A DNA stretch of 59,784 nucleotides. It comes from an uncultured Alphaproteobacteria bacterium (GTDB lineage: Bacteria > Pseudomonadota > Alphaproteobacteria > Caedimonadales > UBA9215). The notes under the pieces are model-generated. The model was not told the DNA's origin. It did no database searches and saw only the letters and a list, made by a program, of their open reading frames with translations. Of the stretch, positions 5,657 through 59,784 are shown in pieces (the first letter of the stretch is position 1; the number at the start of each line of letters is the position of its first letter). A program made the position numbers and the translations under genes. The stretch is taken from positions 1-59,784 of the forward strand of contig CAXBEY010000002.1 of the NCBI GenBank assembly GCA_963974885.1. The letters are read 5' to 3'.

Positions 5657-5990
5657 GGAAAGATTCTCCACAACCACAACGACCTTTTTCATTGGGGTTC
5701 ATAAAGGAAAAACCAGACTCAAGTTTGTCTTCTTTGTAATCCATTTCCGTTCCAATAACAAAGAGAACAGCTTTCGGGTCGATGAAGATGCGAAGGTCGT
5801 CCACCTTGACAATTTCGTCCAAAGGATTCATTTCATCGGCATATTCCAGGGTATAGGAATTCCCAGAGCAGCCCCGTTGGCGCACGCCAATTCGGATGCC
5901 AAGGGAGGGTTTCCCACGGCCCTCGAGAAGAACTTTTATTTGATTCCGCGCAGGCTCTGTTACGGTGAAAATAGATTTGGTTTGTGTCAT
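5649..5990 (-). CDS. iscA: A-type Fe-S carrier IscA
   Basis: RGCSG and C-terminal CGCGESF Cys ligand motifs. Start set at ATG 5990 (MTQTKSIF), 10 nt after the iscU stop. The ORF-track extension to 6071 overlaps iscU. Confidence 0.9.
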   Translation of the reverse strand: MTQTKSIFTVTEPARNQIKVLLEGRGKPSLGIRIGVRQRGCSGNSYTLEYADEMNPLDEIVKVDDLRIFIDPKAVLFVIGTEMDYKEDKLESGFSFMNPNEKGRCGCGESFHV

Positions 5991-38984: not shown

Positions 38985-40556
38985 TTAAACAGCAGGCGCC
39001 TCTTTTCCTGAGATCGTTTGAGACTTTTCCTCTGTGTCTTTAGAGGAGCAAGCACGGTTATAGCGCACGGCTAAGGCACCAACACCAATGACCCAGGCGA
39101 GAACAATACCAGCAATAATAACGGCCAAATAAGGGGTGACAATCATAATATCTTGCACGGCAAAGACCGTGAAAATACCAAGAATTGTCCAGCCACCGGC
39201 TGCTTTACCAAGGCGCCCCCCAATAACATCAACAGCGGCTTTACCCTTTGTTTTAAGGTCTTGATCCAAGGGGATATAGGCCATTTCTTTTGTCGGATCA
39301 AAGAGCGCATATTTCGTGCCTTTTGTGAGGATGTTTTGCAACGCCCCAACTAAGACCGCCATATAAGTTGCGGTAAATCCGAGACCCATGACAATAGGAT
39401 TCAGTTGCTCACTAAACAAGACAAGGGCAAAGAAAAGCCCACCGGTAATGGCTAGAACGAGAGGGGTGATAACCGCGCCTGTGAACCAACCAAAACGCCC
39501 AACAATTCCCTTTGTGAGGAAAATGATGCTGATGGTAGCCGCACCGGTTACACGGGAGAAGTTCCCCATAAAGGTATTATAACCATTGGGGTCACCGCTA
39601 AATTGAAGGGAAAGTTGTTTTTTCCAAATCACTTCGATGAGGTTAATGGACATACCATAGCTTAAAACCAAAAGAGCAATAAGGCCAATATAGGGAGAAG
39701 AGAAAAGATACTTAAAGCTCTCCATGACACCCAACTTTGCTTTCTTCTTCTTTGGGGCTTTTGGTGAGGCTGCATCATAATACAAAGGATTTGTCAGCAC
39801 ATTTTTATGCATCCAACGATAGATATACATGGCAATGGAGCCCGCAACCACAATGGTAACACCGAGGTATTTCAAAGACACGCCCCATGCGTCAACATCT
39901 GCTGGAAGGGAGTGGCGAATATCTGAAAACATCACAACAGCAGTCCCAGAAAGCATCAAGGCAATGTTACCAATGAGGACGAATAAGGGATAAAAGCGTT
40001 TTGCCTCAGTAGAGCGTACAATTTCGTTAGCAAACTGCCAAAACAAAAGAGAAATCATGACGCTGCCCCAAAGTTCGGACATCACATAGAATAAAGAATA
40101 AGTCCATACAGCCCAAACAGAGAGCAAGAACTTTACACGAGGAAATTCAGTCTGTAATTCATGGACTCGGCTAATATCAGGATGCAGCATGTCAATGTTA
40201 GGATAAAGGACAAAGGAAAAGATGCCAAAAAAGACAAGGAAACTGGTTACAATACCGTAAAAAAGCTTTTCAGATGAGAACATATTTGTGAGCTTTGTAT
40301 ATAAAACCACAAAGGACATAGCCCCGATCATCACAAAAATTGCCTTCAGGTAAGGAATGGCTTCGGGGCCAGCACCGGGAGCTGTTGCGATCAACGAATC
40401 TTTCGTATCTCGTAGAATTGTGTAATTAAAAAGAACACATAGCATGATCAATGCCAGGGGCAAAAACTTTTTGATTTCAATGGTGTGGATTGGAAAAATA
40501 GCGGCTCGAACCTTGCTAAATGTTGGTTCCGGTGCGCCTGCTTTCACAGTGGACAT
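38985..40556 (-). CDS. tlc: ATP/ADP translocase (Tlc/NTT nucleotide transporter)
   Basis: 523 aa, about 12 TM helices. N-terminal signature FLPLALIMLCVLFNYTILRDTKDSL is typical of rickettsial/chlamydial Tlc proteins. Confidence 0.9.
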   Translation of the reverse strand: MSTVKAGAPEPTFSKVRAAIFPIHTIEIKKFLPLALIMLCVLFNYTILRDTKDSLIATAPGAGPEAIPYLKAIFVMIGAMSFVVLYTKLTNMFSSEKLFYGIVTSFLVFFGIFSFVLYPNIDMLHPDISRVHELQTEFPRVKFLLSVWAVWTYSLFYVMSELWGSVMISLLFWQFANEIVRSTEAKRFYPLFVLIGNIALMLSGTAVVMFSDIRHSLPADVDAWGVSLKYLGVTIVVAGSIAMYIYRWMHKNVLTNPLYYDAASPKAPKKKKAKLGVMESFKYLFSSPYIGLIALLVLSYGMSINLIEVIWKKQLSLQFSGDPNGYNTFMGNFSRVTGAATISIIFLTKGIVGRFGWFTGAVITPLVLAITGGLFFALVLFSEQLNPIVMGLGFTATYMAVLVGALQNILTKGTKYALFDPTKEMAYIPLDQDLKTKGKAAVDVIGGRLGKAAGGWTILGIFTVFAVQDIMIVTPYLAVIIAGIVLAWVIGVGALAVRYNRACSSKDTEEKSQTISGKEAPAV

Positions 40557-49044: not shown

Positions 49045-49956
49045 TCACTCTTTCCTAGACTGGGACCTTTTTGGAAAGACTATAGAATTAAGAAGAGCGT
49101 TCGCTAAAAGCGGCGCGATGCTAATTTGTCGAATTTTGGGATGGTCCTGTGTTTCCTCTGATCTGAGGAGACTATCGGTTATAATCAGGTGTTGGAGGGA
49201 AGACTCTTTGAGCCGTTGGTGAGAATCCTTTGATAAAACACCGTGTGTTGCATAGGCGCTTATGCCTTTTGCTCCGTGCTCTTTTAAAGTTTGGGCTGCG
49301 TTGCAAAGGGTTTTAGCCGTATCTACGATGTCATCTAAAATAAGACAGTCTTTGCCTGCGACATCACCTATAAAGCCTATCACATGGGGCTCTCCCTTAT
49401 GATCTCGGCGCTTTTGAAAGTGCGCCAGGGAAAGATTAAGTCTCCTTGCCATCTCTTTAGTACGGGGGAGGGCGCCTTGATCTGGAGCAACGAGCACACT
49501 GTTGCTCAGGTCAAAGTGTTGGCGGATATCTTCCTCTATTAGGGATGTCGGTTGTAAGTTTTGGACCGGAATGTCGAAAAAAGGCTCTATGTCTTTTGAG
49601 TGTAAGTCTAAGGTGATTATTTCAGTGGCCCCCGATTCTTGAAAAAGTTTTGAAATCGTTTGTGCTAGGGAATTCTGGCGAGCATAGTAAAAATAAGGCA
49701 AAACAGCGACGATATGTTGCGCCCCTTTTTGCCGAGCGTGATCAAGGATTAAGAAAAGTTCCATCAGGCTCTGGTGCGCTGAAATTGAGGTTGTTTGAAG
49801 GGCCGCAACGTACTCCCCTTGAAGAGAGTCTTGAATTTTAATCATTATTTCGCCATTTGGGAAATATTTTATTTCCTCATGGACAACCTCGGTTCCCAAA
49901 ACCTTTGCTACACTGTTAGACAGAGCTTTATTGCTATTGCCAGAAAGCAGAATCAT
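49045..49956 (-). CDS. prs: ribose-phosphate pyrophosphokinase
   Basis: N-terminal LLSGNSNKALS...YFPNGEI and PRPP-binding loop LILDDIVDTAKTL. 303 aa. Confidence 0.9.
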   Translation of the reverse strand: MILLSGNSNKALSNSVAKVLGTEVVHEEIKYFPNGEIMIKIQDSLQGEYVAALQTTSISAHQSLMELFLILDHARQKGAQHIVAVLPYFYYARQNSLAQTISKLFQESGATEIITLDLHSKDIEPFFDIPVQNLQPTSLIEEDIRQHFDLSNSVLVAPDQGALPRTKEMARRLNLSLAHFQKRRDHKGEPHVIGFIGDVAGKDCLILDDIVDTAKTLCNAAQTLKEHGAKGISAYATHGVLSKDSHQRLKESSLQHLIITDSLLRSEETQDHPKIRQISIAPLLANALLNSIVFPKRSQSRKE

Positions 49957-50084
49957 TGTTAATCTTAACCCTATGGTGAACTATTTTTTACCTTATCAAC
50001 TCTCCTAAATGATGTAAATGCATTGGATAAGGAGAGATGTTTAGAAATTTTAATGACTGATAAAAATGGTAGGATAATACTTTA

Positions 50085-50885
50085 ATGCATGTGTCGTTCC
50101 TTAAAAAATTTACTTTTTTCCTCTGCCTTGTTGGCGGTTTTTTTCTCATGGGGTGCTCAGATGAACAAACTTCATCCGTCGATAAGGAGGGGAAAATTAT
50201 TGAAATCGTTATGGGAACGTCTGCCGATATGCCTCCATTTGAGTTCTATGAGGCCTCTGAAATTGTCGGTTACGATATTGATATTGCAAAGGCGATTGCC
50301 AAGGAAATGGGCTTTAAGCTTCAGGTGCGGGATATGGACTTTAGTGCCTTGATCCCGGCCCTTCAATCTGGGCGTGTTGACTTTGTTATGGCCTCCATGA
50401 CCCCAACGCCAGAACGTGAAAAGAGCATTGATTTTTCCGAGCCCTATTTAACATTGCCTTTGGCTGCCATGACCCTTGAGCAAGATGCGGTTACAACTCA
50501 AAAAGGATTGAGCAAAAAAAGGGTGGGCGTGCAACTAGGCTCAACACATGAACAGTTTGCAAGGGATGTTGCTAGTCGTGATAAAACCGTAAAAGTTCGG
50601 TCCCTTAATAAACTTTCAGAGCTTGTCCAAGAATTGATTTCAGGGCGTTTAGATGTGTTAATCATGGAAACAAAGACGGCCAAGGCCTTTCAACAAGTCA
50701 ACCCTAATCTAAAAGTTGCCGCCTTGGAAGACAACACGGTTTCTTTTGCACTTGCTTTTCCTAAGGATTCAAAGTGGCGGGAAAAATTTAATGTAGCCAT
50801 AGAAAAACTACAGATTTCAGGGCGTTTGGATGAAATTAGGGCTGCTTGGTTTTCCGACTATAAAAATAAATTAAAGGGCCTATGA
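50085..50885 (+). CDS. amino-acid ABC transporter substrate-binding lipoprotein
   Basis: Lipobox LMGCS and a family-3 SBP layout (GYDIDIAKAIAKEMG, DFVMASMTPTPER). Confidence 0.85.
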   Translation: MHVSFLKKFTFFLCLVGGFFLMGCSDEQTSSVDKEGKIIEIVMGTSADMPPFEFYEASEIVGYDIDIAKAIAKEMGFKLQVRDMDFSALIPALQSGRVDFVMASMTPTPEREKSIDFSEPYLTLPLAAMTLEQDAVTTQKGLSKKRVGVQLGSTHEQFARDVASRDKTVKVRSLNKLSELVQELISGRLDVLIMETKTAKAFQQVNPNLKVAALEDNTVSFALAFPKDSKWREKFNVAIEKLQISGRLDEIRAAWFSDYKNKLKGL

Positions 50886-51541
50886 TTTTTCATTTTGACC
50901 GCATTGTTGACCATATCCCTTTTATCTTAAAGGGGACTTTTGTCACGCTTCAATACACTATTTTGGCCCTCTCCATTGGCCTTGTGCTAGGGGCGGTTTT
51001 TGCCCTGATGAAGTTGTCCAAATCAGGTGTTTTGAGATCTTTTGCAACCTTTTATATCTCTATTTTTCGAGGAACACCTTTGTTGGTGCAACTCTCGTTG
51101 ATATACTTTGCAACACCTCAACTTATTGGCTATCAAATCACAGCTCTTGAAGCCGGTTTATTGGCCTTTTCCTTAAATTCAACCGCCTATGTTTCTGAAA
51201 TTATTCGAGCAGGCATTCAGGCCGTTGATAAAGGACAATTTGAAGCAGCAGAATCGTTGGCCATCCCTTACCACAAAGCGATGCTTTGCATTATTATGCC
51301 CCAAGCCATTCGCAATATTCTCCCAGCACTGGTCAATGAAGCCATTAACCTTTTAAAAGAATCAGCGCTGGTTTCCGTCATTGGTGAGATGGATTTGCTG
51401 CGTCGAGCAAACATTGTTTCTTCACAGACTTTTTTATATTTTGAACCTCTTTTATTTGTGGCTGTAGTTTACTATCTATTGGTTTCGATTTTATCGCAGC
51501 TCTCAAAACTCCTTGAAAAAAGGTTAAAGCGCAGTGATTGA
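50882..51541 (+). CDS. amino-acid ABC transporter permease (HisM/GlnP type)
   Basis: 5 TM helices and an EAA-like loop ([23 protein letters not shown]). Overlaps the neighbouring genes by 4 and 8 nt. Confidence 0.9.
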
Positions 51542-52256
51542 ATTCAAAAACTTAACAAAAATCTTTTCCGGCCAAAAAGTGCTTAATGGCGTTGAAGGGC
51601 ATGTGGGAGAGGGCGCTATTGTGGCGCTTTTAGGGCCGTCTGGTTCTGGAAAGTCAACATTGTTGCGGTGTATGAATCTCCTTGATCGGCCAGAGGGGGG
51701 AGAGGTCTTTATTTCACAAGCGAACATTTTGGATCAAAAGTGTGATATTCGCCATGTCCGTGAAAATATTGGGATGGTTTTTCAGCACTTTCACTTGTTT
51801 CCCAATATGACCGTCCTTGAGAATATTGCCTTTGCGCCCCAACAGGTTCTTCATAAATCCCAAGCAGAAGCCCATGGCATTGCTGTTGATTTGTTAGAAC
51901 GTGTTGGTTTATCTGAAAAGGCTGATGCTTATCCGGCACGTCTTTCAGGGGGGCAAAAACAGCGGGTAGCCATTGCAAGATCTTTGGCCATGAATCCCAA
52001 AGTCATGCTTTTTGATGAACCAACCTCTGCCCTTGATCCTGAAATGGTGAAGGAGGTCCTTGATGTTATCCAAAGCCTTGCAAAGGATAATATGACCATG
52101 CTGATCGTTACTCATGAAATGCAGTTTGCCCGAGAAATAGCTGATGAGATCTGGTTTCTTGATGAGGGAGATATTGTCGAACGTGCGCCCCCTGAGCTTT
52201 TTTTCACAAACCCGTCTTCAAAAAGAGCCAAAGCTTTTTTAGATAAAGTTTTGTAA
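51534..52256 (+). CDS. amino-acid ABC transporter ATP-binding protein (GlnQ-like)
   Basis: Walker [10 protein letters not shown], signature LSGGQKQRV, Walker [13 protein letters not shown]-loop VTHEM. Confidence 0.95.
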
Positions 52257-52406
52257 TTTTTAAAAAATCTTGTTCTTTTCCTAGTAAAGAGGTATAAAAA
52301 ATTTGTTTTTGCATGCTGTCAAAGTAGGCGAAAAAATAGAAACCTTTAAAAAAAATGTGTGCCCTTGTCTTCTTTTACATTTTCTATGCCCCTTGCAAAA
52401 AGCAAA

Positions 52407-53117
52407 ATGACAGACAGCTTAAAAAAGAATGTTTTTATTACTGCAGGGAATCGTGGTATTGGCTATGCTCTTGTTGAGGCCTATCTAAAGAAAGGCTATT
52501 GCGTTTATACGACTTTTCGCAGTGTTCAGAAATCTTCACTGCTCCTGCAGAACAATCATCCCCACCTCTACAAGATTCAACTGGATATAAAAAACTCTGA
52601 TTCCTTAAGGGATATTAAGTCTTTTTTGAGTGACAGCCCCATTGACATTATGATTCATAATGCCTGTAGTTTTGGATATCAGGCCAATGAGTTAAACACT
52701 CTACAATCAGAAGAGTGGCAAGATAGCTTCTACGTTAATACTATTTTTCCGATCCAACTATCGGTGATGCTTAAGGAAAATATAAAGGGATCTCAAGATA
52801 AAAAGGTTGTTTTTATTTCTAGCCGTCGCGGTAGCAATACTGTGAATATTACCGATGCTTATAAAGGGCGCTATGCTTATCGGTCCTCAAAAGCAGCCCT
52901 TAACTCAGCGGCTTTGGCGCTTTCCCAGGATTTTTCTGATGATGAAATTTCAGTTTTAATTTTACATCCAGGGCGTGTTGCGACAGAGGTGACAAATTAT
53001 GATAGCATCTCACCGTTTAAAAGCGCGCGTCACATCGTTAAGTTGGTTGAAAAGTTAACCGTTGAAGGGACAGGACAATTTCTTTCGGCAGATAGTGGAA
53101 AAAAAATCGCGTGGTAA
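52407..53117 (+). CDS. SDR family oxidoreductase
   Basis: Cofactor motif ITAGNRGIG, NAC motif, catalytic YRSSKAALN (Y-x3-K). Start set at ATG 52407 (MTDSLKKN). Confidence 0.8.
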   Translation: MTDSLKKNVFITAGNRGIGYALVEAYLKKGYCVYTTFRSVQKSSLLLQNNHPHLYKIQLDIKNSDSLRDIKSFLSDSPIDIMIHNACSFGYQANELNTLQSEEWQDSFYVNTIFPIQLSVMLKENIKGSQDKKVVFISSRRGSNTVNITDAYKGRYAYRSSKAALNSAALALSQDFSDDEISVLILHPGRVATEVTNYDSISPFKSARHIVKLVEKLTVEGTGQFLSADSGKKIAW

Positions 53118-53219
53118 TTTATAGCCCTTTCTCTTAATGCCAAAGAAAGCGTTAGGAAAAATGTAAAATTTCCCTTGCCAAAAGGCATATTTTTTCTTAT
53201 GGTAAGATCATCCAAATGT

Positions 53220-53295
53220 GGGGCCATAGCTCAGCTGGGAGAGCGCTACAGTGGCACTGTAGAGGTCAGGAGTTCGATCCTCCTTGGCTCCACCA
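53220..53295 (+). tRNA. tRNA-Ala (GGC)
   Basis: 76-nt cloverleaf GGGGCCATAGCTCAGCTGGGAGAGCG... Anticodon loop is GTGGCAC, the G3:U70 identity pair is present and CCA is encoded. Confidence 0.9.
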
Positions 53296-53601
53296 TTTTT
53301 ACCATTTCCCAATATTTTCAATTGAAATTAAACGCCCTTCTTGCTTTGCATGGTGAGTTCTTCTGCCCGACAAAAAAGGCTCAATTCATTTCTTTTGTTC
53401 ATATTTTCTTAAACCACTTTTTATCATAGGTAGATGATCTCTTAATCACGATCGCCTAGCTTTATTTTTGCCAAAATGAAGCCCATCCTATCTCTTTAAT
53501 ATCAGCGCCTTGGGGCATTTATTTGCCGCGGGGGTGGGATTTTTGTCAAGTAATTTATATAAATCATAAATAAGTTATTTGTCTTTTTATCGTTATTTTT
53601 A

Positions 53602-53630
53602 TTGACATATATCAAGAGGTTTTGTTTATT
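53602..53630 (+). promoter_or_regulatory. candidate sigma70-type promoter upstream of the giant ORF
   Basis: TTGACA (53602-53607), a 17-nt spacer, then TTTATT (53625-53630). This implies a 5' leader of about 155 nt. It is a pattern match only. Confidence 0.25.
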
Positions 53631-53790
53631 AGTTTTGTCTTCAGGGGCAAAAATTCTGGTTTAGGGTCAAAGACTTTTAACGCAGATAAGGGAGGCCCTG
53701 ATGGATTAAGCCCAGAAAGGTAAAACCACCAGAAGAGTAACAAAAATACCAAAGGGTATTTTTAAAAAATTAAATAGGAAGTAGCGTAAA

Positions 53791-56700
53791 ATGCGTAATA
53801 TATCGTTGTCAAAATATCTCTCTAAATCTGTTCACCTTTTTACCATTTTCGTTTATCTTTTTACCTTCCTTGGTCCAAGCCTTGCTCTGGCAAGCCATGC
53901 CCCTACCTATGCGGAAACCGTCAATGGAGAGTCTGAAAAACCTCGCGCTAAAACCACCCCCTCCACGCCGCCAAAAAGCGCCTTTACGGGAAAATCGCAC
54001 ACCTTCGATGACCTTCCCTCAGCCCTTCAAGACACCTATCATCGCTTTACTTTAAAGGTTTCTCAAGATCCTTTAAGTGGGGGCATTCACTTCCGCCTAC
54101 GAGATTTTGAAGGCACAAGGAACCTTTTCCATCACGTGCTGCCCAATGATAAAAAGGACTCTCCTTTTACGCCCCTCCTAGAAGACGGAACCCACACAGG
54201 CTTTACCGTAGATGTGCCCGATGTTGGACAGATTCAATGCGATTGGCAAGGGAACTTAAAGCTGGTCGGTCTCCATAGGATCTCCCCTGAAACGGCTCCC
54301 CTTGCTTTGCTCTTAGCCACCGATGGCAGCGTTGATTTTTCAGATATTACCTTTAAAAATTTAGCCCTCCATGCCAAGAACGTAACCTTTGTGCAGGGTA
54401 TTAAAATCCAAGAAGAGTCTGTTTTTGATATTGACGTCCTTGACCTAGCTGAGTCTGGTTTTGAAAACACAAAGTTGATGAGTTTTCTATCAAAAACACG
54501 GTTTATTTCTAAGAAACGTTGGCGTAACAAAGGGAAAATTGTGGGGGAAAAATCCCTTGATTTTGATCGCTGTATGTTTTCAAATCCGGGGATTGTTTAT
54601 GGCAAAGACCATTTAACTCTTTCCTCCGGTTTCTTTGATAATGATGGAGGCGCCTTTCATGGAGAGAAGGGGACCAGCCTTAACCTAACGCGTTATTTTT
54701 ATAACAAGAGAGGCGGAAAGGTTTCCTCTGGCAAGGTCACCCATGTTCATTTTCATAAAAAACAAGAGGGTGATCTTGGAGACATCCACGGAGAAGAAGT
54801 TGTTTTAGAGGATTTATCTGGGGGGTTTCATTTTTCTTTGCAAAAGGGCCGCGTTGAAGCCACCCACAGCACCACACTGATCGGCAAACATCCAAGCACA
54901 AAAGGCGTTGATTTTGTGACCCCTCAGTTGATTTTGGATGCCCCTGATTTTTCTTTAGGCAAACAAAAGCATGTTGAGCGCACCGTTGTTAAGCGCTCTA
55001 AAGGTCAATTTTTTACGTTGACCAGCCCTTATAAAACCGCCGGCACCTTGGAGTTCTGGCAAAAAGACCTCACCACACGAAAAGCCGTTCAAGCTGCCAT
55101 GTTGGCCCGCTTTGGCGATGAAAAAGGCAAGATGCCTGCACCCCATGGGAAGATCAGTTTACAATCTTCTGTGAAGGCCGCTGGAGGACTGAAATTCTTC
55201 ACCCCCCATGCCAAAGTCTCCTTGGGCGACGAGACAAAAGAAGCTCTCCTTGAGTTTTTCCATAAACAAGGATGGCTCGAAGCTTATGCCACAGAGTTTG
55301 ACCTTGAAAAAGGCACCCTTGTTGCCGAAAATGCCTATATCCACGCCCCGGGCAGTATTAAAATGGGGCGTTTGGTGAAAGACGAAAACGAGGATCTCTT
55401 TTCCCAAAAACTTTATAAGAAAAATGGCAGCACCGTTCTCGTTCGGGGCACCACAACCTTACGGGGCCCGTGGCACCACCGAGCCGATTTTTTAACGTCT
55501 TTCCTTATTCTAAATTCCCCAAAGGATCATCTCTTTGAAGCGGGCTCTGCCCGAGTACTGAAAGATTGCACACTCAAAGGCGGCGGTGATTTAGACTTAA
55601 TGCGCAAAAGGACAGAAATATTTATATTGCGTCCAAACCTTTCTAGCGGCCATGGAACCAGGGAACGTCTAATTTCTTTTATCAGCGGAGCACCTGCAGA
55701 ATTTTTGGTTGGAAATTATTTTAATAATGATGGTCAGGTGAATAACCATTCCTCTATTATGCATGCCTATAACGTGAAAGAGGCGCACAAAATTAAAAAC
55801 ATTGATATAGAGGCCTGTAATACTAATCTCAATTCACAACATATAAAATACCAGTTTAATTATTTTAATTCTTATTTTCCGATTAGTTTTAAAGAAATGG
55901 TGACTGACCCCTTTCATAATTTTAAGGGTTTTTCTTTCAAACAAAGCAGGGGCTTAGATCAATACATTGGTTCCGGTCTTTTTTCCGGCATGATGTTGGG
56001 GGTATTTGCAGCCCTACAGGAAGGCTTGAATGGCAATGGAGCCGTCACCTACCCCGCCCAGACAAGCTTTGGCGAAGGGGTAACCGTCTCCCCCAATGAA
56101 GAGGGCAAGACAACCCTTGGAGGGAACTTCCAAGCGCCGGCCACCATTGTCCTCATTCCCACAGGAAGTGCCGAGATTGGCACGAGGCCCAGTGCCACAC
56201 TTCAAAAGGTTCATACCCACAGCCCCTTGCAATCTCTGGTGCCCGAGGCCTTTAACCTTCATACCCTCACCATGGCGGAGCACCTCCGCGACCTTATGGC
56301 GGAACAACCAGAGGTGGAGACCTTCTTTAAGTTCCATCCGCGCTTTTGGTTCGAGGCTGATAAAGCTCAACAATTCCATAATAAACTCCGCCCTTATGTG
56401 CGGGCTCAACGTCCCCAGGGTGGCTTTTATACCCCTGAAGGACAGGTGCTTTTCACCATTAGCCCCGACATGCTCATAAGCCAAGTTCAAGACCAAGCCC
56501 TTAAGGTTTTTGGCCGCGGCACCATTGAGGACAATCGTAAAATCGATGAAGAACAAATCCTTGAATTACATCAAAACTTTGTTAATTATTTGAAGGAACT
56601 TGAGGAAGTCTATGACCCTGAAACCGGCAAGAAAATCACCCTCCCCGTTGGCCCTCTTTCCTTAGCATCTTTGGGCCAACATAACAGCCGTCCTGCCCCC

Positions 56701-59700
56701 AAAAAGCCTTGTATTGCTTATGCGGCGGCCATGAATGAGGAAGGAATCCTCGAGCTTTCTCCGATGATTTGGATGCCAAAGAAAATGCATGCTAAGCATG
56801 GCATTACAACTCAGCTGCTCTTGAGCATTCCCCAGGGCATGAGGTTCAAAGACTTTTTAGCTTATGCCATGAGAAACCCCCTGCTCGCTGCTGGGACTGA
56901 GAAACTCATCACCGATCACCCCCATATGATCTCCCAATTGGATGAAGCCGCTGAGCGTTATCGCGACGAAAATAAAATTAGCGAAGACGATGAACTGCCC
57001 AAAGCTGGGCCCGTGACCTTTGAAGGAGACATTGACGCAAAGACGTTCATGGGCTTCAACACGGGAGACGTTATTTCTCACGCGGACATTACAGCGGAGG
57101 ATGCGTCTTTAGTTTCTCTTTTTGGCAGTGTGATCATGAGCTCTCTTGTGGGGCGTGAGGGGTCTGGGGATCATTTTCACGATAAAATTGTGGCCCAAGC
57201 CCGTATCAAAGCGGACAAGCTCATCAACATATTCGCCGGCCAAGATATTATCTTCCAAGGGGCTGAAACCATTTCAGAGGTCTCGACCCACATTTTGGCT
57301 CTGGCGAATCTTATTGACGTTCCAGCGGTCCTCATCAGCCAACGCACACAACAACTCAGCGGCAAATACAAAGGCTCAGAAACCTGGATACACGTCCACA
57401 ACCATGTCTCAAAACACAGCTCCGGGGGCGAATACGATCAACAAACCCTTGGCGCCCAAGATCTTCATGGTGTGGAATACGATGCAGGGAAATTGAAAAT
57501 CACCGGCAAGGGTAAAGTAAACTTTGCGGCTGTTTTTGAGCAACTTATCCACAGCTCTCAGGGGACGAAAAAGTCCCGTTTCAAAACCAAAAACCGCCAA
57601 GAAACCACCAGCACATCAACGTCAAAGGGGGGCGTTATTGGCTCTCGTGATGCGGCAGCTGAAATCACCAGCGAGGACAGCGATTTGATCTTTGAGGCTA
57701 TTGCCTTTAAGGGGAAATACGGCGCCATTATTAAAGCCCTCAAAGGGCGGGTTGAGTTTCTCTTGGGTCATAATACCAAAAATGTGTCCTCCATGAGCAG
57801 CTCTAGCGATCCGATGTGGATGAAGAGCACGCAAAAAACAGAAGAGCACCTCACCTTTACCATACCCACAACGGAAGGACCCATTAAGGTTCATTCCCTA
57901 GAAACTCTTCTCCAATCCGTTGATGGCCAGCACCTTGCGTTCTTGGATGACCTCGATCTGACGGAAGGGGGATCCTTGATCAGCCAAGTCATCAAAGAAA
58001 TCCACGAAAGCCATTCAAAAACAGTCCAAGGCCCCGGTATGGCTTTGGCGGTTATCGTTGCCGTTGTTGTGACCTGCTGCACCGGTGGTGCTGGGGGGCC
58101 TATTGCGGGCGCCCTTGCCAATGCCCTTGGAGGATTCATGAGTGCTGCCCTAGCACAGGCTTTATCCGTGGCCTTCGTGGCGGCTCTTGATACAGCTCTT
58201 ACAAATCTAACCCTAGACACCATGTCCAATGGGGGCAATGTTGGCAAGGGCCTTAAGCAAATGGGCAGCAAGAAAAACCTTAAAGCCATGGGAACGGCTG
58301 CGTTAAAATCTGGTGGCGGTAAGGCTAATACGGCCATAGGGGCTGTTGGTGAAAAAATCGTGCAATCTGCTATGAATGCTGGCATAGATACGGCCATTAA
58401 TGGCGGTAAATTTGGCAAACATTTTACAACAAACCTGAAATATGCTGGCGCCTCGTTGTTTGTGGATGGCGTTATTGATGAAGTTTCAGGGAGTGCAAGC
58501 AACGATAACAAGGCCCAACAAGGCCCACCTCTTGATTTTGGTGAGCGCGCTCAGGAATTCATTGGAAGTGCAGCCTTAAACGTCGGGCGTCAATTTGCGG
58601 TGAATAGCCTGGCGGGAGAAGACCCCAAGGATGCGTTTATCAAAGCTGCAGCGGCTTTCGCGGCTCACGTTGCTTGCTTCGGTATTGCCTCTGGCTTCGA
58701 TGGCCTTAAGGGCTTTTTTGCCAACGATAACGATGCAGAAGACAACCATAAATCCCGCGGTGCGTCTTCTTCCGAGGGGCGTCCTCAAACGCCAGAAGAA
58801 CGCGCTCAAGAAGAACGAGAACGCCGCGACCAATCTCTCCACGACATCATCGATGGCATCGACTATGAGGAAGAAAGCACCCGCGAGGGTGATGGCCCCC
58901 GCAAAGGAAAAACCCGCCAAGATGGAAAAACAAAACCTTCTTCTACGAGGCCTACAAAAGGTGACGATATACCTTTTGATTTTTCCTTTGCAACAAGTCA
59001 AAGTGTGTGGGATGGCATTGTCGATGAAGAAGAAAAAATTCAGGATGATAGCGGCATTAGTTACCGTTTTTCAGGTGAGAAGCGTGGGCGTTCCAGTGAA
59101 CGTGTAGAGACTTCTTCACGCTCAAGAAGCTATAGCCCACCACGTATAAAAGATACCTACTATGAAGAAGGCACAGATTGGTTCAGCTTAAAAGTACGAA
59201 GTGCTTATGAAGCAAAAGAGCGTATTAGCATTGAGAATTTTGATCCCAATGATCTTTTGCCGGCCTTTGGGGCTCTGAGCATTGATGGTGTTATTTTAGT
59301 CAATGACGGCCTTGATAAGGTGACTCTTGGCGGTTGGTCTACCGTTACCGAGTTTTTAGATAAGGTCGCCAATGGAGCAAGAACTTATACACGTCGAGGG
59401 TCTCGTTTTGTTTCAGGAGATCAGCGGTCTGCTCAAAACCTCGGGGACGGTGTTTATGTTGTCCTAAGCGTTGTTGGTGGAAAAGGCCTTAAATCGATCA
59501 AGCTCTTCAAAAAAATGGGCAATGCAGTAAAAAACCTGAGAAAAGCTAAAACAGCGGAAGCGGCTAGATTTTGGGATAAAAAACCTATAAATTTTAAGGG
59601 AAACAAGATTTTTCAACGTGATGATTTAATTAGGCCAGATTTTCTTACTGGAACAAAAGGACTTACGAATTTAGACAGAATGAAATTAGGAAGGGCTCCG

Positions 59701-59757
59701 CTTAGTTTAGATGGTAATCCTATTAACTTGGTAAGCGACTCAGGAAGCCCACCCTGA
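53791..59757 (+). CDS. giant secreted CdiA/FhaB-like polymorphic-toxin-type protein (1988 aa)
   Basis: Single uninterrupted ORF with signal peptide ...LGPSLALA/SH. The N-terminal half is long and predicted to be beta-rich. A Gly/Ala-rich DUF637-like block follows (GPGMALAVIVAVVVTCCTGGAGG...NGGNVGKGLKQMGSKKNLKAMGTAALKSGG), then a charged linker and a C-terminal nuclease-toxin-like lead-in. The coding call is confident; the function is inferred. Confidence 0.85.
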   Translation: MRNISLSKYLSKSVHLFTIFVYLFTFLGPSLALASHAPTYAETVNGESEKPRAKTTPSTPPKSAFTGKSHTFDDLPSALQDTYHRFTLKVSQDPLSGGIHFRLRDFEGTRNLFHHVLPNDKKDSPFTPLLEDGTHTGFTVDVPDVGQIQCDWQGNLKLVGLHRISPETAPLALLLATDGSVDFSDITFKNLALHAKNVTFVQGIKIQEESVFDIDVLDLAESGFENTKLMSFLSKTRFISKKRWRNKGKIVGEKSLDFDRCMFSNPGIVYGKDHLTLSSGFFDNDGGAFHGEKGTSLNLTRYFYNKRGGKVSSGKVTHVHFHKKQEGDLGDIHGEEVVLEDLSGGFHFSLQKGRVEATHSTTLIGKHPSTKGVDFVTPQLILDAPDFSLGKQKHVERTVVKRSKGQFFTLTSPYKTAGTLEFWQKDLTTRKAVQAAMLARFGDEKGKMPAPHGKISLQSSVKAAGGLKFFTPHAKVSLGDETKEALLEFFHKQGWLEAYATEFDLEKGTLVAENAYIHAPGSIKMGRLVKDENEDLFSQKLYKKNGSTVLVRGTTTLRGPWHHRADFLTSFLILNSPKDHLFEAGSARVLKDCTLKGGGDLDLMRKRTEIFILRPNLSSGHGTRERLISFISGAPAEFLVGNYFNNDGQVNNHSSIMHAYNVKEAHKIKNIDIEACNTNLNSQHIKYQFNYFNSYFPISFKEMVTDPFHNFKGFSFKQSRGLDQYIGSGLFSGMMLGVFAALQEGLNGNGAVTYPAQTSFGEGVTVSPNEEGKTTLGGNFQAPATIVLIPTGSAEIGTRPSATLQKVHTHSPLQSLVPEAFNLHTLTMAEHLRDLMAEQPEVETFFKFHPRFWFEADKAQQFHNKLRPYVRAQRPQGGFYTPEGQVLFTISPDMLISQVQDQALKVFGRGTIEDNRKIDEEQILELHQNFVNYLKELEEVYDPETGKKITLPVGPLSLASLGQHNSRPAPKKPCIAYAAAMNEEGILELSPMIWMPKKMHAKHGITTQLLLSIPQGMRFKDFLAYAMRNPLLAAGTEKLITDHPHMISQLDEAAERYRDENKISEDDELPKAGPVTFEGDIDAKTFMGFNTGDVISHADITAEDASLVSLFGSVIMSSLVGREGSGDHFHDKIVAQARIKADKLINIFAGQDIIFQGAETISEVSTHILALANLIDVPAVLISQRTQQLSGKYKGSETWIHVHNHVSKHSSGGEYDQQTLGAQDLHGVEYDAGKLKITGKGKVNFAAVFEQLIHSSQGTKKSRFKTKNRQETTSTSTSKGGVIGSRDAAAEITSEDSDLIFEAIAFKGKYGAIIKALKGRVEFLLGHNTKNVSSMSSSSDPMWMKSTQKTEEHLTFTIPTTEGPIKVHSLETLLQSVDGQHLAFLDDLDLTEGGSLISQVIKEIHESHSKTVQGPGMALAVIVAVVVTCCTGGAGGPIAGALANALGGFMSAALAQALSVAFVAALDTALTNLTLDTMSNGGNVGKGLKQMGSKKNLKAMGTAALKSGGGKANTAIGAVGEKIVQSAMNAGIDTAINGGKFGKHFTTNLKYAGASLFVDGVIDEVSGSASNDNKAQQGPPLDFGERAQEFIGSAALNVGRQFAVNSLAGEDPKDAFIKAAAAFAAHVACFGIASGFDGLKGFFANDNDAEDNHKSRGASSSEGRPQTPEERAQEERERRDQSLHDIIDGIDYEEESTREGDGPRKGKTRQDGKTKPSSTRPTKGDDIPFDFSFATSQSVWDGIVDEEEKIQDDSGISYRFSGEKRGRSSERVETSSRSRSYSPPRIKDTYYEEGTDWFSLKVRSAYEAKERISIENFDPNDLLPAFGALSIDGVILVNDGLDKVTLGGWSTVTEFLDKVANGARTYTRRGSRFVSGDQRSAQNLGDGVYVVLSVVGGKGLKSIKLFKKMGNAVKNLRKAKTAEAARFWDKKPINFKGNKIFQRDDLIRPDFLTGTKGLTNLDRMKLGRAPLSLDGNPINLVSDSGSPP

Positions 59758-59784
59758 TGGCACAAAAAAAGCCCCGAGCCTTTA

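Follow-up and report, generated by a model that had tools for sequence, protein, structure and literature searches.

Probable disruption of an LHH polymorphic toxin gene by an IS66-type insertion in a marine Holosporales-like bacterium

The window analysed here, a 59,784-nt stretch of contig CAXBEY010000002.1 from an uncultured alphaproteobacterium, ends within a giant polymorphic toxin gene whose nuclease tip is interrupted, very probably by an insertion sequence (IS) of the IS66 type. The last open reading frame (ORF) of the window, taken from the ORF list and its translation, occupies 53791-59757 on the plus strand and encodes 1988 amino acids (aa). Its C-terminus reads ...RFWDKKPINFKGNKIFQRDDLIRPDFLTGTKGLTNLDRMKLGRAPLSLDGNPINL, of which DGNPINL are the last native residues, followed by VSDSGSPP and a TGA stop codon at 59755-59757. 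Behind the stop lie a run of seven A (59764-59770) and the segment gccccgagcc (59771-59780), and the window ends at 59784. The ORF end, VSDSGSPP, the stop codon, the A-run, the GC-rich arm and the window end had all been listed in a first-pass annotation of this DNA, and each was found where it had placed them. The features of the locus are as follows.

53791-59730, plus strand: native part of the giant secreted polymorphic toxin gene (aa 1-1980), with a hydrophobic N-terminal leader and a DUF637 region.
58318-58467, plus strand: best DUF637 (PF04830) stretch (aa 1510-1559), a Gly/Ala-rich hydrophobic segment of the type found in CdiA/FhaB-like proteins.
59083-59538, plus strand: pre-toxin module (aa 1765-1916), RGRSSER...YYEEGTDWF...VYVVLSVVGGKGLKSIK...VKNL, also found in proteins P0006-P0008.
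59566-59730, plus strand: N-terminal half of an LHH (HNH/EndoVII) nuclease toxin domain (aa 1926-1980), ending at Leu1980, the L of LHH.
59723-59730, no strand: 8-bp target site TTAACTTG, with an exact copy at positions 38-45 of contig L008 from another assembly.
59731-59784, no strand: 54-nt terminus of an IS66-family-type element, whose outermost roughly 23 bp (59731-59753) form an imperfect inverted repeat with GTAAGCG at its start, identified by comparison with Tara scaffolds, L008 and L010, a locus of a Desulforhopalus genome.
59731-59757, plus strand: eight IS-encoded codons (VSDSGSPP) and TGA, with the same VSDSGSPP-stop reading at the ends of Tara scaffolds L002-L006.
59764-59780, minus strand: A-run and GC-rich arm, which on the minus strand read GGCTCGGGGC and then T7 and fit the 3' arm and T-tract of a terminator.

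LHH domains are HNH/EndoVII-fold nuclease tips of bacterial polymorphic toxins in the classification of Zhang, Aravind and colleagues. In a search of the C-terminus against Pfam, a check that the first-pass annotation had proposed, aa 1959-1980 (59665-59730) aligned with positions 1-22 of the 76 positions of the LHH profile (PF14411). Because the match is cut short, it scores 14.4-19.2 bits, under the gathering cut-off of 23.3 bits, and the ORF as it stands does not pass as a whole LHH domain. A phmmer search of 1.84 billion representative proteins with aa 1905-1980 retrieved 291 relatives at E<=1e-3, and the matches stop about 56-60 residues before the C-termini of these proteins. Exactly where the window departs, the relatives go on with ...PINLHH... 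for about 57-60 residues; their alignment (A1) reads ...DGKPINLHHMTQ..G.IAEVTQTFH....IHIN....PSGI.R..F..WR..YW..RA.DF. The alignment thus places the expected His-His exactly at the point of divergence. The L-H-H motif and the downstream His/Asn core, which the relatives carry as ...PINLHH...FH...IHIN, are absent from the window ORF. The window sequence shares with the family the lead-in FQRDDLI...TNL..M..GRAP...DG.PINL, and it lies at the C-terminal tip of a leader-bearing carrier of 1988 aa with immunity genes downstream (on L008, described below), as LHH domains lie at the extreme C-terminus of large secreted carriers with SUKH immunity genes downstream. It differs from the family in ending at profile position 22, before the LHH histidines, without any catalytic residue. 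The resemblance to LHH-type HNH/EndoVII nucleases that had been proposed from the lead-in is thus borne out by the profile match and the 291 relatives, and the catalytic His pair was correctly expected at the break, where the relatives continue with LHH. The reservation that the expected motif might be wrong is excluded by the ...PINLHH... of these relatives. Neither a complete domain nor a family lacking His-His at this position agrees with the data, since the profile match is cut at position 22 and the relatives carry the histidines there.

We traced the window to positions 5768-65551 of the 65551-nt scaffold ena:ERZ2783029:TARA_SAMEA4397255_METAG-scaffold_272, so that its last base is also the last base of the source scaffold. 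Relatives of this strain were found in sequencing runs X1, X2 and X3, which belong to three different studies and gave one contig each, about 93-96% identical to the window end. These contigs match the window up to 59730 and then continue with CACCACCTTCTACAAACGGCAAAAGGGCCA, which encodes HHLLQTAKGP. They hold an empty site, with a single copy of TTAACTTG followed by CACCAC, and the last 54 nt of the window occur in none of them. The comparison shows that the window lineage departs from its relatives from 59731 on, one codon before the His-His. No public run was found to hold the source strain itself; only the relatives at 93-96% identity were recovered.

The first 24 nt of the tail, counted from 59731, were found at the extreme ends of five Tara scaffolds (L002-L006). 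The flanks of these scaffolds are unrelated, and all five share the same boundary, immediately before GTAAGCGACTCAGG, beyond which they are identical to the window over the 43-47 nt that they hold. One junction lies in a thiolase coding sequence (CDS), after ...TTINK, one overlaps a stop codon, and those of L005 and L006 are intergenic; no ORF runs into the junction of L004. Together with the window, these scaffolds provide six distinct left junctions, the multi-site occurrence expected of an IS66 element. Runs X1-X4 contain both L003 and the window lineage, with similar word shares, and the L003 site is empty in the relatives present in those runs; the six junction sites are probably all carried by one genome. 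The tail is the terminus of a multi-copy mobile element. The abrupt end of the window is an assembly break, 54 nt into a repeat that a short-read assembler could not pass, because the terminus on which the assemblers stopped belongs to a multi-copy element. The tail 24-mer has no match in GTDB representative genomes or viral contigs, and comparison of the tail with plasmids by blastn gave chance-level matches only.

On L002 (TARA_R110002095_G_scaffold207634_1) the IS terminus splits the thiolase-like CDS after ...GLPQTTHCTTINK, 45 nt from the scaffold end, which makes the thiolase gene a second target of the element. An adapter or other artefact, which the position of the tail at contig ends might suggest, was ruled out on three grounds: GTAAGCG ends in inverted orientation, duplication of 8 bp and relatives among IS66 elements. 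We likewise rejected a reading as the toxin gene's own terminator, since the sequence is IS-internal and identical at five unrelated loci. The first-pass annotation had compared the segment behind the stop with the first half of a terminator. It is terminator-like, but on the minus strand and within IS sequence rather than at the gene's own 3' end; judged from its sequence, it could be the tail of a terminator behind the IS transposase gene tnpC, with the other arm beyond the window.

Inverted repeats of IS66 elements are 20-30 bp long and start with GTAAGCG (PMC11946415), and insertion of members of the family follows a rule of inverted repeats flanked by 8-bp direct repeats (PMC11946415, PMC12888890). 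Most known members come from Proteobacteria, and some from Bacteroidetes/Chlorobi and Firmicutes (PMC11946415). From this rule, a junction consisting of ...CGCTTAC, TTAACTTG and CACCAC was predicted ahead of the search for the missing half. The query combined the window half of the tip, the HHLLQTAKGP of the relatives and the C-terminal part of a homologue, and retrieved P0220, a 67-aa protein present in NCBI and ENA (MRRLLNLHHLLQTAKGPIAEVTHKFHNQYRKALHINYGSKIPSGIDRTVFEKWKRAYWKNRAKDFIG, starting with MRRLLNLHHLLQTAKGP). P0220 is encoded on L008 (ena:ERZ3421850:NODE_40265, 1262 nt), which belongs to a different assembly from the window (ERZ2783029). Another contig of the same sample, L001, is 99.5% identical to window positions 49531-55915, and L008 is therefore attributed to a near-identical strain. 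L008 starts with AAATATTAAAAAAAGATGGGGTTTATGAGGCGCTTAC, TTAACTTG and CACCACCTTCTACAAACGGCAAAAGGGCCA in direct succession; the predicted junction was thus found, reading ...GGCGCTTAC, then TTAACTTG, then CACCAC. The reverse complement of the IS end on L008 (GTAAGCGCCTCATAAACCCCATC) and the end on the window (GTAAGCGACTCAGGAAGCCCACC) agree at 18/23 positions, and both start with GTAAGCG. GTAAGCG inverted repeats, an 8-bp target-site duplication and several copies were thus all found for this element, the duplication being read from two junctions in two assemblies of strains about 99.5% identical.

Beyond this junction, the HH codons of L008 are identical to the continuation in X1-X3 over 30/30 nt. 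P0220 aligns with LHH profile positions 20-76 (63 bits), and when the window half is joined to L008 46-228, the match covers positions 1-76 of 76 with 90.4 bits. The window half and P0220 are complementary halves of one LHH domain. This full-profile match shows that the ancestral gene was an LHH member, of which the ORF as now encoded is a fragment; the uninterrupted toxin protein would be 2040 aa long. The joined tip had no match in a PDB sequence search. The P0220 ORF itself (L008 25-228) is opened by an ATG within the IS end, in frame with the detached HH half, and has been annotated by gene callers. Further downstream on L008 lie two intact full-length SUKH-type genes, of 138 aa (SUKH_5, 110.6 bits) and 154 aa (SMI1_KNR4, 60.8 bits). 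SUKH proteins are the usual immunity proteins of polymorphic toxins. Both the missing HH core and an immunity gene, for which a downstream check had been advised, were thus recovered on L008. After the second SUKH gene, L008 1109-1262 is unusually G+C-rich for this genome (...ggcgggaggaaaaccgcgcctctcgcgctcctttgcgcgggccc...) up to the contig end; this segment has no match in the window or the other loci and could represent a further repeat or the edge of a different mobile element.

To relate the two ends to known elements, GTDB genomes were scanned with a degenerate consensus of both, which gave three matches. In L010, from a Desulforhopalus metagenome-assembled genome (MAG), one end is identical to the L008 end at 29/30 positions and the other, GTAAGCGTTTCACAAAGCACACCC, is identical to the window tail at 19/24, the two ends lying 2474 bp apart. 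The interior of L010 encodes a 123-aa ORF, a 115-aa TnpB_IS66 protein (2e-37) and a 521-aa DDE_Tnp_IS66 transposase (4e-95), the last of which also contains LZ, zinc-finger and C-terminal IS66 domains. Our element thus resembles L010, which carries tnpA-tnpB-tnpC, by its near-identical ends, and it resembles the IS66 family (IS66, ISPsko1, ISPa75 and others) by its GTAAGCG ends, imperfect inverted repeats of about 23 bp, 8-bp duplication and multiple copies. It differs from the family in being known here from its ends and in its host, a Holosporales-like marine MAG. Orientation of the window tail was taken from the comparison with L010, by which the tail would be the tnpC-distal end and the IS genes would be encoded on the minus strand, past the window end. 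In L009, from a Marinamargulisbacteria MAG, an IS66-type end at 1355-1381 is identical to the L008 end at 27/27 positions, and an ISL3-family transposase gene at 87-1325 (DDE_Tnp_ISL3, 200.7 bits) interrupts the IS66-type sequence. This suggests nested IS elements and the presence of the same IS66-type end in a different phylum.

We conclude, with a probability of roughly 0.88, that the LHH polymorphic toxin of this marine, Holosporales-like bacterium was disarmed when an IS66-type element inserted into its gene. This conclusion is built on both junctions, the 8-bp duplication, the multi-copy element, the empty sites in relatives and the complementary LHH halves. In the proposed course of events, an IS66-family IS would have transposed between the Leu1980 codon and the catalytic His-His, duplicating the 8 bp TTAACTTG, and the upstream ORF would now run eight codons into the IS end before it stops. 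The truncated product would run from the leader through the carrier body and the pre-toxin module into the toxin domain, of which it would keep the first half; without the catalytic half, that is the 60 residues from the His-His on, it is expected to have no nuclease function. Beyond the IS, the severed 3' piece (HH...DFIG) and both SUKH-type immunity genes would be preserved intact. The element probably carries tnpA, tnpB and tnpC in its interior, by analogy with L010. The truncated product is presumably still made and exported, and its nuclease activity has presumably been lost: with no residue of the catalytic half left, it should be unable to cut DNA. Truncation or disarming of the tip had been among the readings of the first-pass annotation; that effect agrees with our data, and the cause, an insertion of the IS66 type from 59731 on, had not been foreseen.

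Several points weigh against this conclusion. The element is known from 54 nt and 37 nt of its ends, and an IS66-derived miniature inverted-repeat transposable element (MITE), a composite or a larger insertion would yield the same two junctions. These junctions come from ERZ2783029 and ERZ3421850, and not from one molecule; the insertion and the stop codon were read from assembled scaffolds, and not from reads of the source sample. The L010 copy itself lacks an 8-bp direct repeat. Finally, the presumed loss of nuclease activity is deduced from the missing catalytic half of the domain.

Several other explanations of the interruption were weighed. The insert could be a short, non-autonomous MITE with IS66-type ends, mobilised in trans, rather than a full IS66 of 2.4-2.7 kb that contains tnpA, tnpB and tnpC; its effect on the toxin gene would be the same. 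The shortness of the two ends seen would suit it, as would the metagenome scan, which returned scaffold ends only and none with the terminus together with an interior, as expected for an element under the length cut-off of the collection or left unassembled. However, full-length multi-copy IS elements also often fail to assemble, L010 as the nearest element in which both ends match is a complete IS66 of three genes, and the window tail resembles, on its minus strand, the end of a terminator behind a gene; we thus consider a MITE unlikely, though worth keeping in mind. That the scaffold end is a chimera or assembly artefact and the real gene intact might be argued from the divergent tail, which spans just 54 nt and closes a scaffold built from short reads. 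This is highly improbable, since in a second assembly the complementary junction shows an inverted GTAAGCG end and the 8 bp duplicated exactly, which chimeras do not yield, and the same terminus and boundary occur at 5 other loci.

Displacement of the tip by recombination between toxin cassettes, as the first-pass annotation had also envisaged, or its deletion, would have removed the catalytic half from the locus. The family is indeed modular, with the pre-toxin module joined to WHH/colicin-DNase tips in P0006-P0008 and with other tips in P0001-P0003. Nevertheless, divergence begins inside the toxin domain and not at the module boundary VKNL, and the missing half lies on L008 directly behind the other IS end and the target duplication, followed by the immunity genes, with 30/30 nt equal to the continuation in relatives; we give displacement or deletion very little credence, and orphan-cassette recombination is not supported. 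A self-splicing intron, removal of which would restore an intact LHH toxin in the mature mRNA, has a negligible probability. It would fit an insert at a codon boundary that starts with GTAAG..., and the thiolase position on L002 would suit a split codon, but the insert has terminal inverted repeats and an 8-bp target duplication, some of its copies are intergenic, IS66 transposase genes are flanked by relatives of its ends, and Rfam matched neither an intron nor any other RNA family at the junctions.

Under the IS66 insertion that we favour, the immunity genes are probably still expressed and may protect the cell against kin with an intact toxin. A stronger version holds that the insertion is a selected state rather than mere decay, disarmed but still immune, in which the carrier and the SUKH genes are kept, the latter perhaps driven from the IS end; P0220 might then yield the LHH core as a free fragment, or the toxin might be re-armed if the IS excised precisely. 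The one line of support for this version is that the immunity genes and the detached half are intact, and we regard it as improbable. On L001 (ena:ERZ3421850 NODE_3518), a 16-nt deletion at position 5984 removes AAAGGATCATCTCTTT, equivalent to window 55521-55536, inside the toxin gene. It frameshifts the gene to a 584-aa product, on a contig with a coverage of about 4.9x. The deletion would be a second, independent inactivating lesion and fits ongoing decay, at a coverage that is low (about 5x). Window and L001 also differ by a 9-nt in-frame indel, TTGAGAATA, at window 51817-51825 in an ABC-transporter ATPase gene.

The carrier part of the toxin was compared with known systems. The DUF637 match (PF04830) in the ORF scores 29.3 bits against a cut-off of 26.6 in Pfam. 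The homologues P0001-P0005 are giant proteins of 2054-2712 aa with DUF637, and the C-terminal tips of P0001-P0003, the sequences of which were read, differ from that of the window toxin. In a collection of 15 billion proteins, the closest entry to the 1988-aa product, P0001, is only 50% identical; the product itself was found there neither as an exact record nor among the homology results, although the collection does include neighbours of this gene on the scaffold. The pre-toxin module is 65% identical in P0006 and 46% in P0007, and the similarity ends at VKNL, beyond which the tips differ. P0006-P0008 are proteins of about 480-490 aa, with a signal peptide in P0007, and combine this module with WHH/colicin-DNase tips, so that one delivery module is common to the giant carrier and to small proteins. 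Comparison with homologous giant proteins and with relatives, another check that had been suggested, thus revealed other tips in P0001-P0003 and the intact empty site in X1-X3. The toxin family is modular, but modular exchange is not the event at this locus.

The window toxin resembles the contact-dependent inhibition toxins of the CdiA/FhaB type in being a giant protein with a DUF637 region, a pre-toxin module followed by a variable tip, and downstream immunity genes. It differs from these two-partner secretion (TPS) proteins in several respects: Pfam gave no match to the TPS domain (PF05860) in the toxin ORF, a motif search found no VENN motif there, and no FHA repeats were detected in it. 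The upstream neighbours of the gene are a tRNA-Ala, an SDR gene and an amino-acid ABC transporter, and no TpsB/CdiB gene adjoins it on this side, the far downstream side lying outside the data. The carrier would work like a CdiA-type carrier, but we leave it outside the CdiA group.

Cluster mates of several window proteins are named as Holosporales or Alphaproteobacteria MAG, and the window encodes a TLC ATP/ADP translocase at 38985-40556 on the minus strand (PF03219, 592 bits). Such translocases are typical of obligate intracellular bacteria, in keeping with the Holosporales names among the cluster mates. The host is probably a marine Holosporales-like alphaproteobacterium, sampled in a Tara Oceans metagenome, with an intracellular life.

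For the annotation of this locus, what appeared as a strangely truncated toxin would be corrected to an IS-disrupted pseudogene at a scaffold break, an ordinary gene disruption and neither a new toxin architecture nor a case of cassette switching. Through this analysis, a marine, Holosporales-like bacterium that also has an ATP/ADP translocase is seen to possess an LHH polymorphic toxin and, with it, two SUKH immunity genes at one locus. In this lineage the IS66-type element probably occupies at least six sites, and the relatives at 93-96% identity lack it at both sites where this could be tested. The IS sites, their empty state in the relatives and the second lesion in the toxin gene fit a recent spread of the IS and a loss of weapons for competition, a course expected of bacteria restricted to a host.

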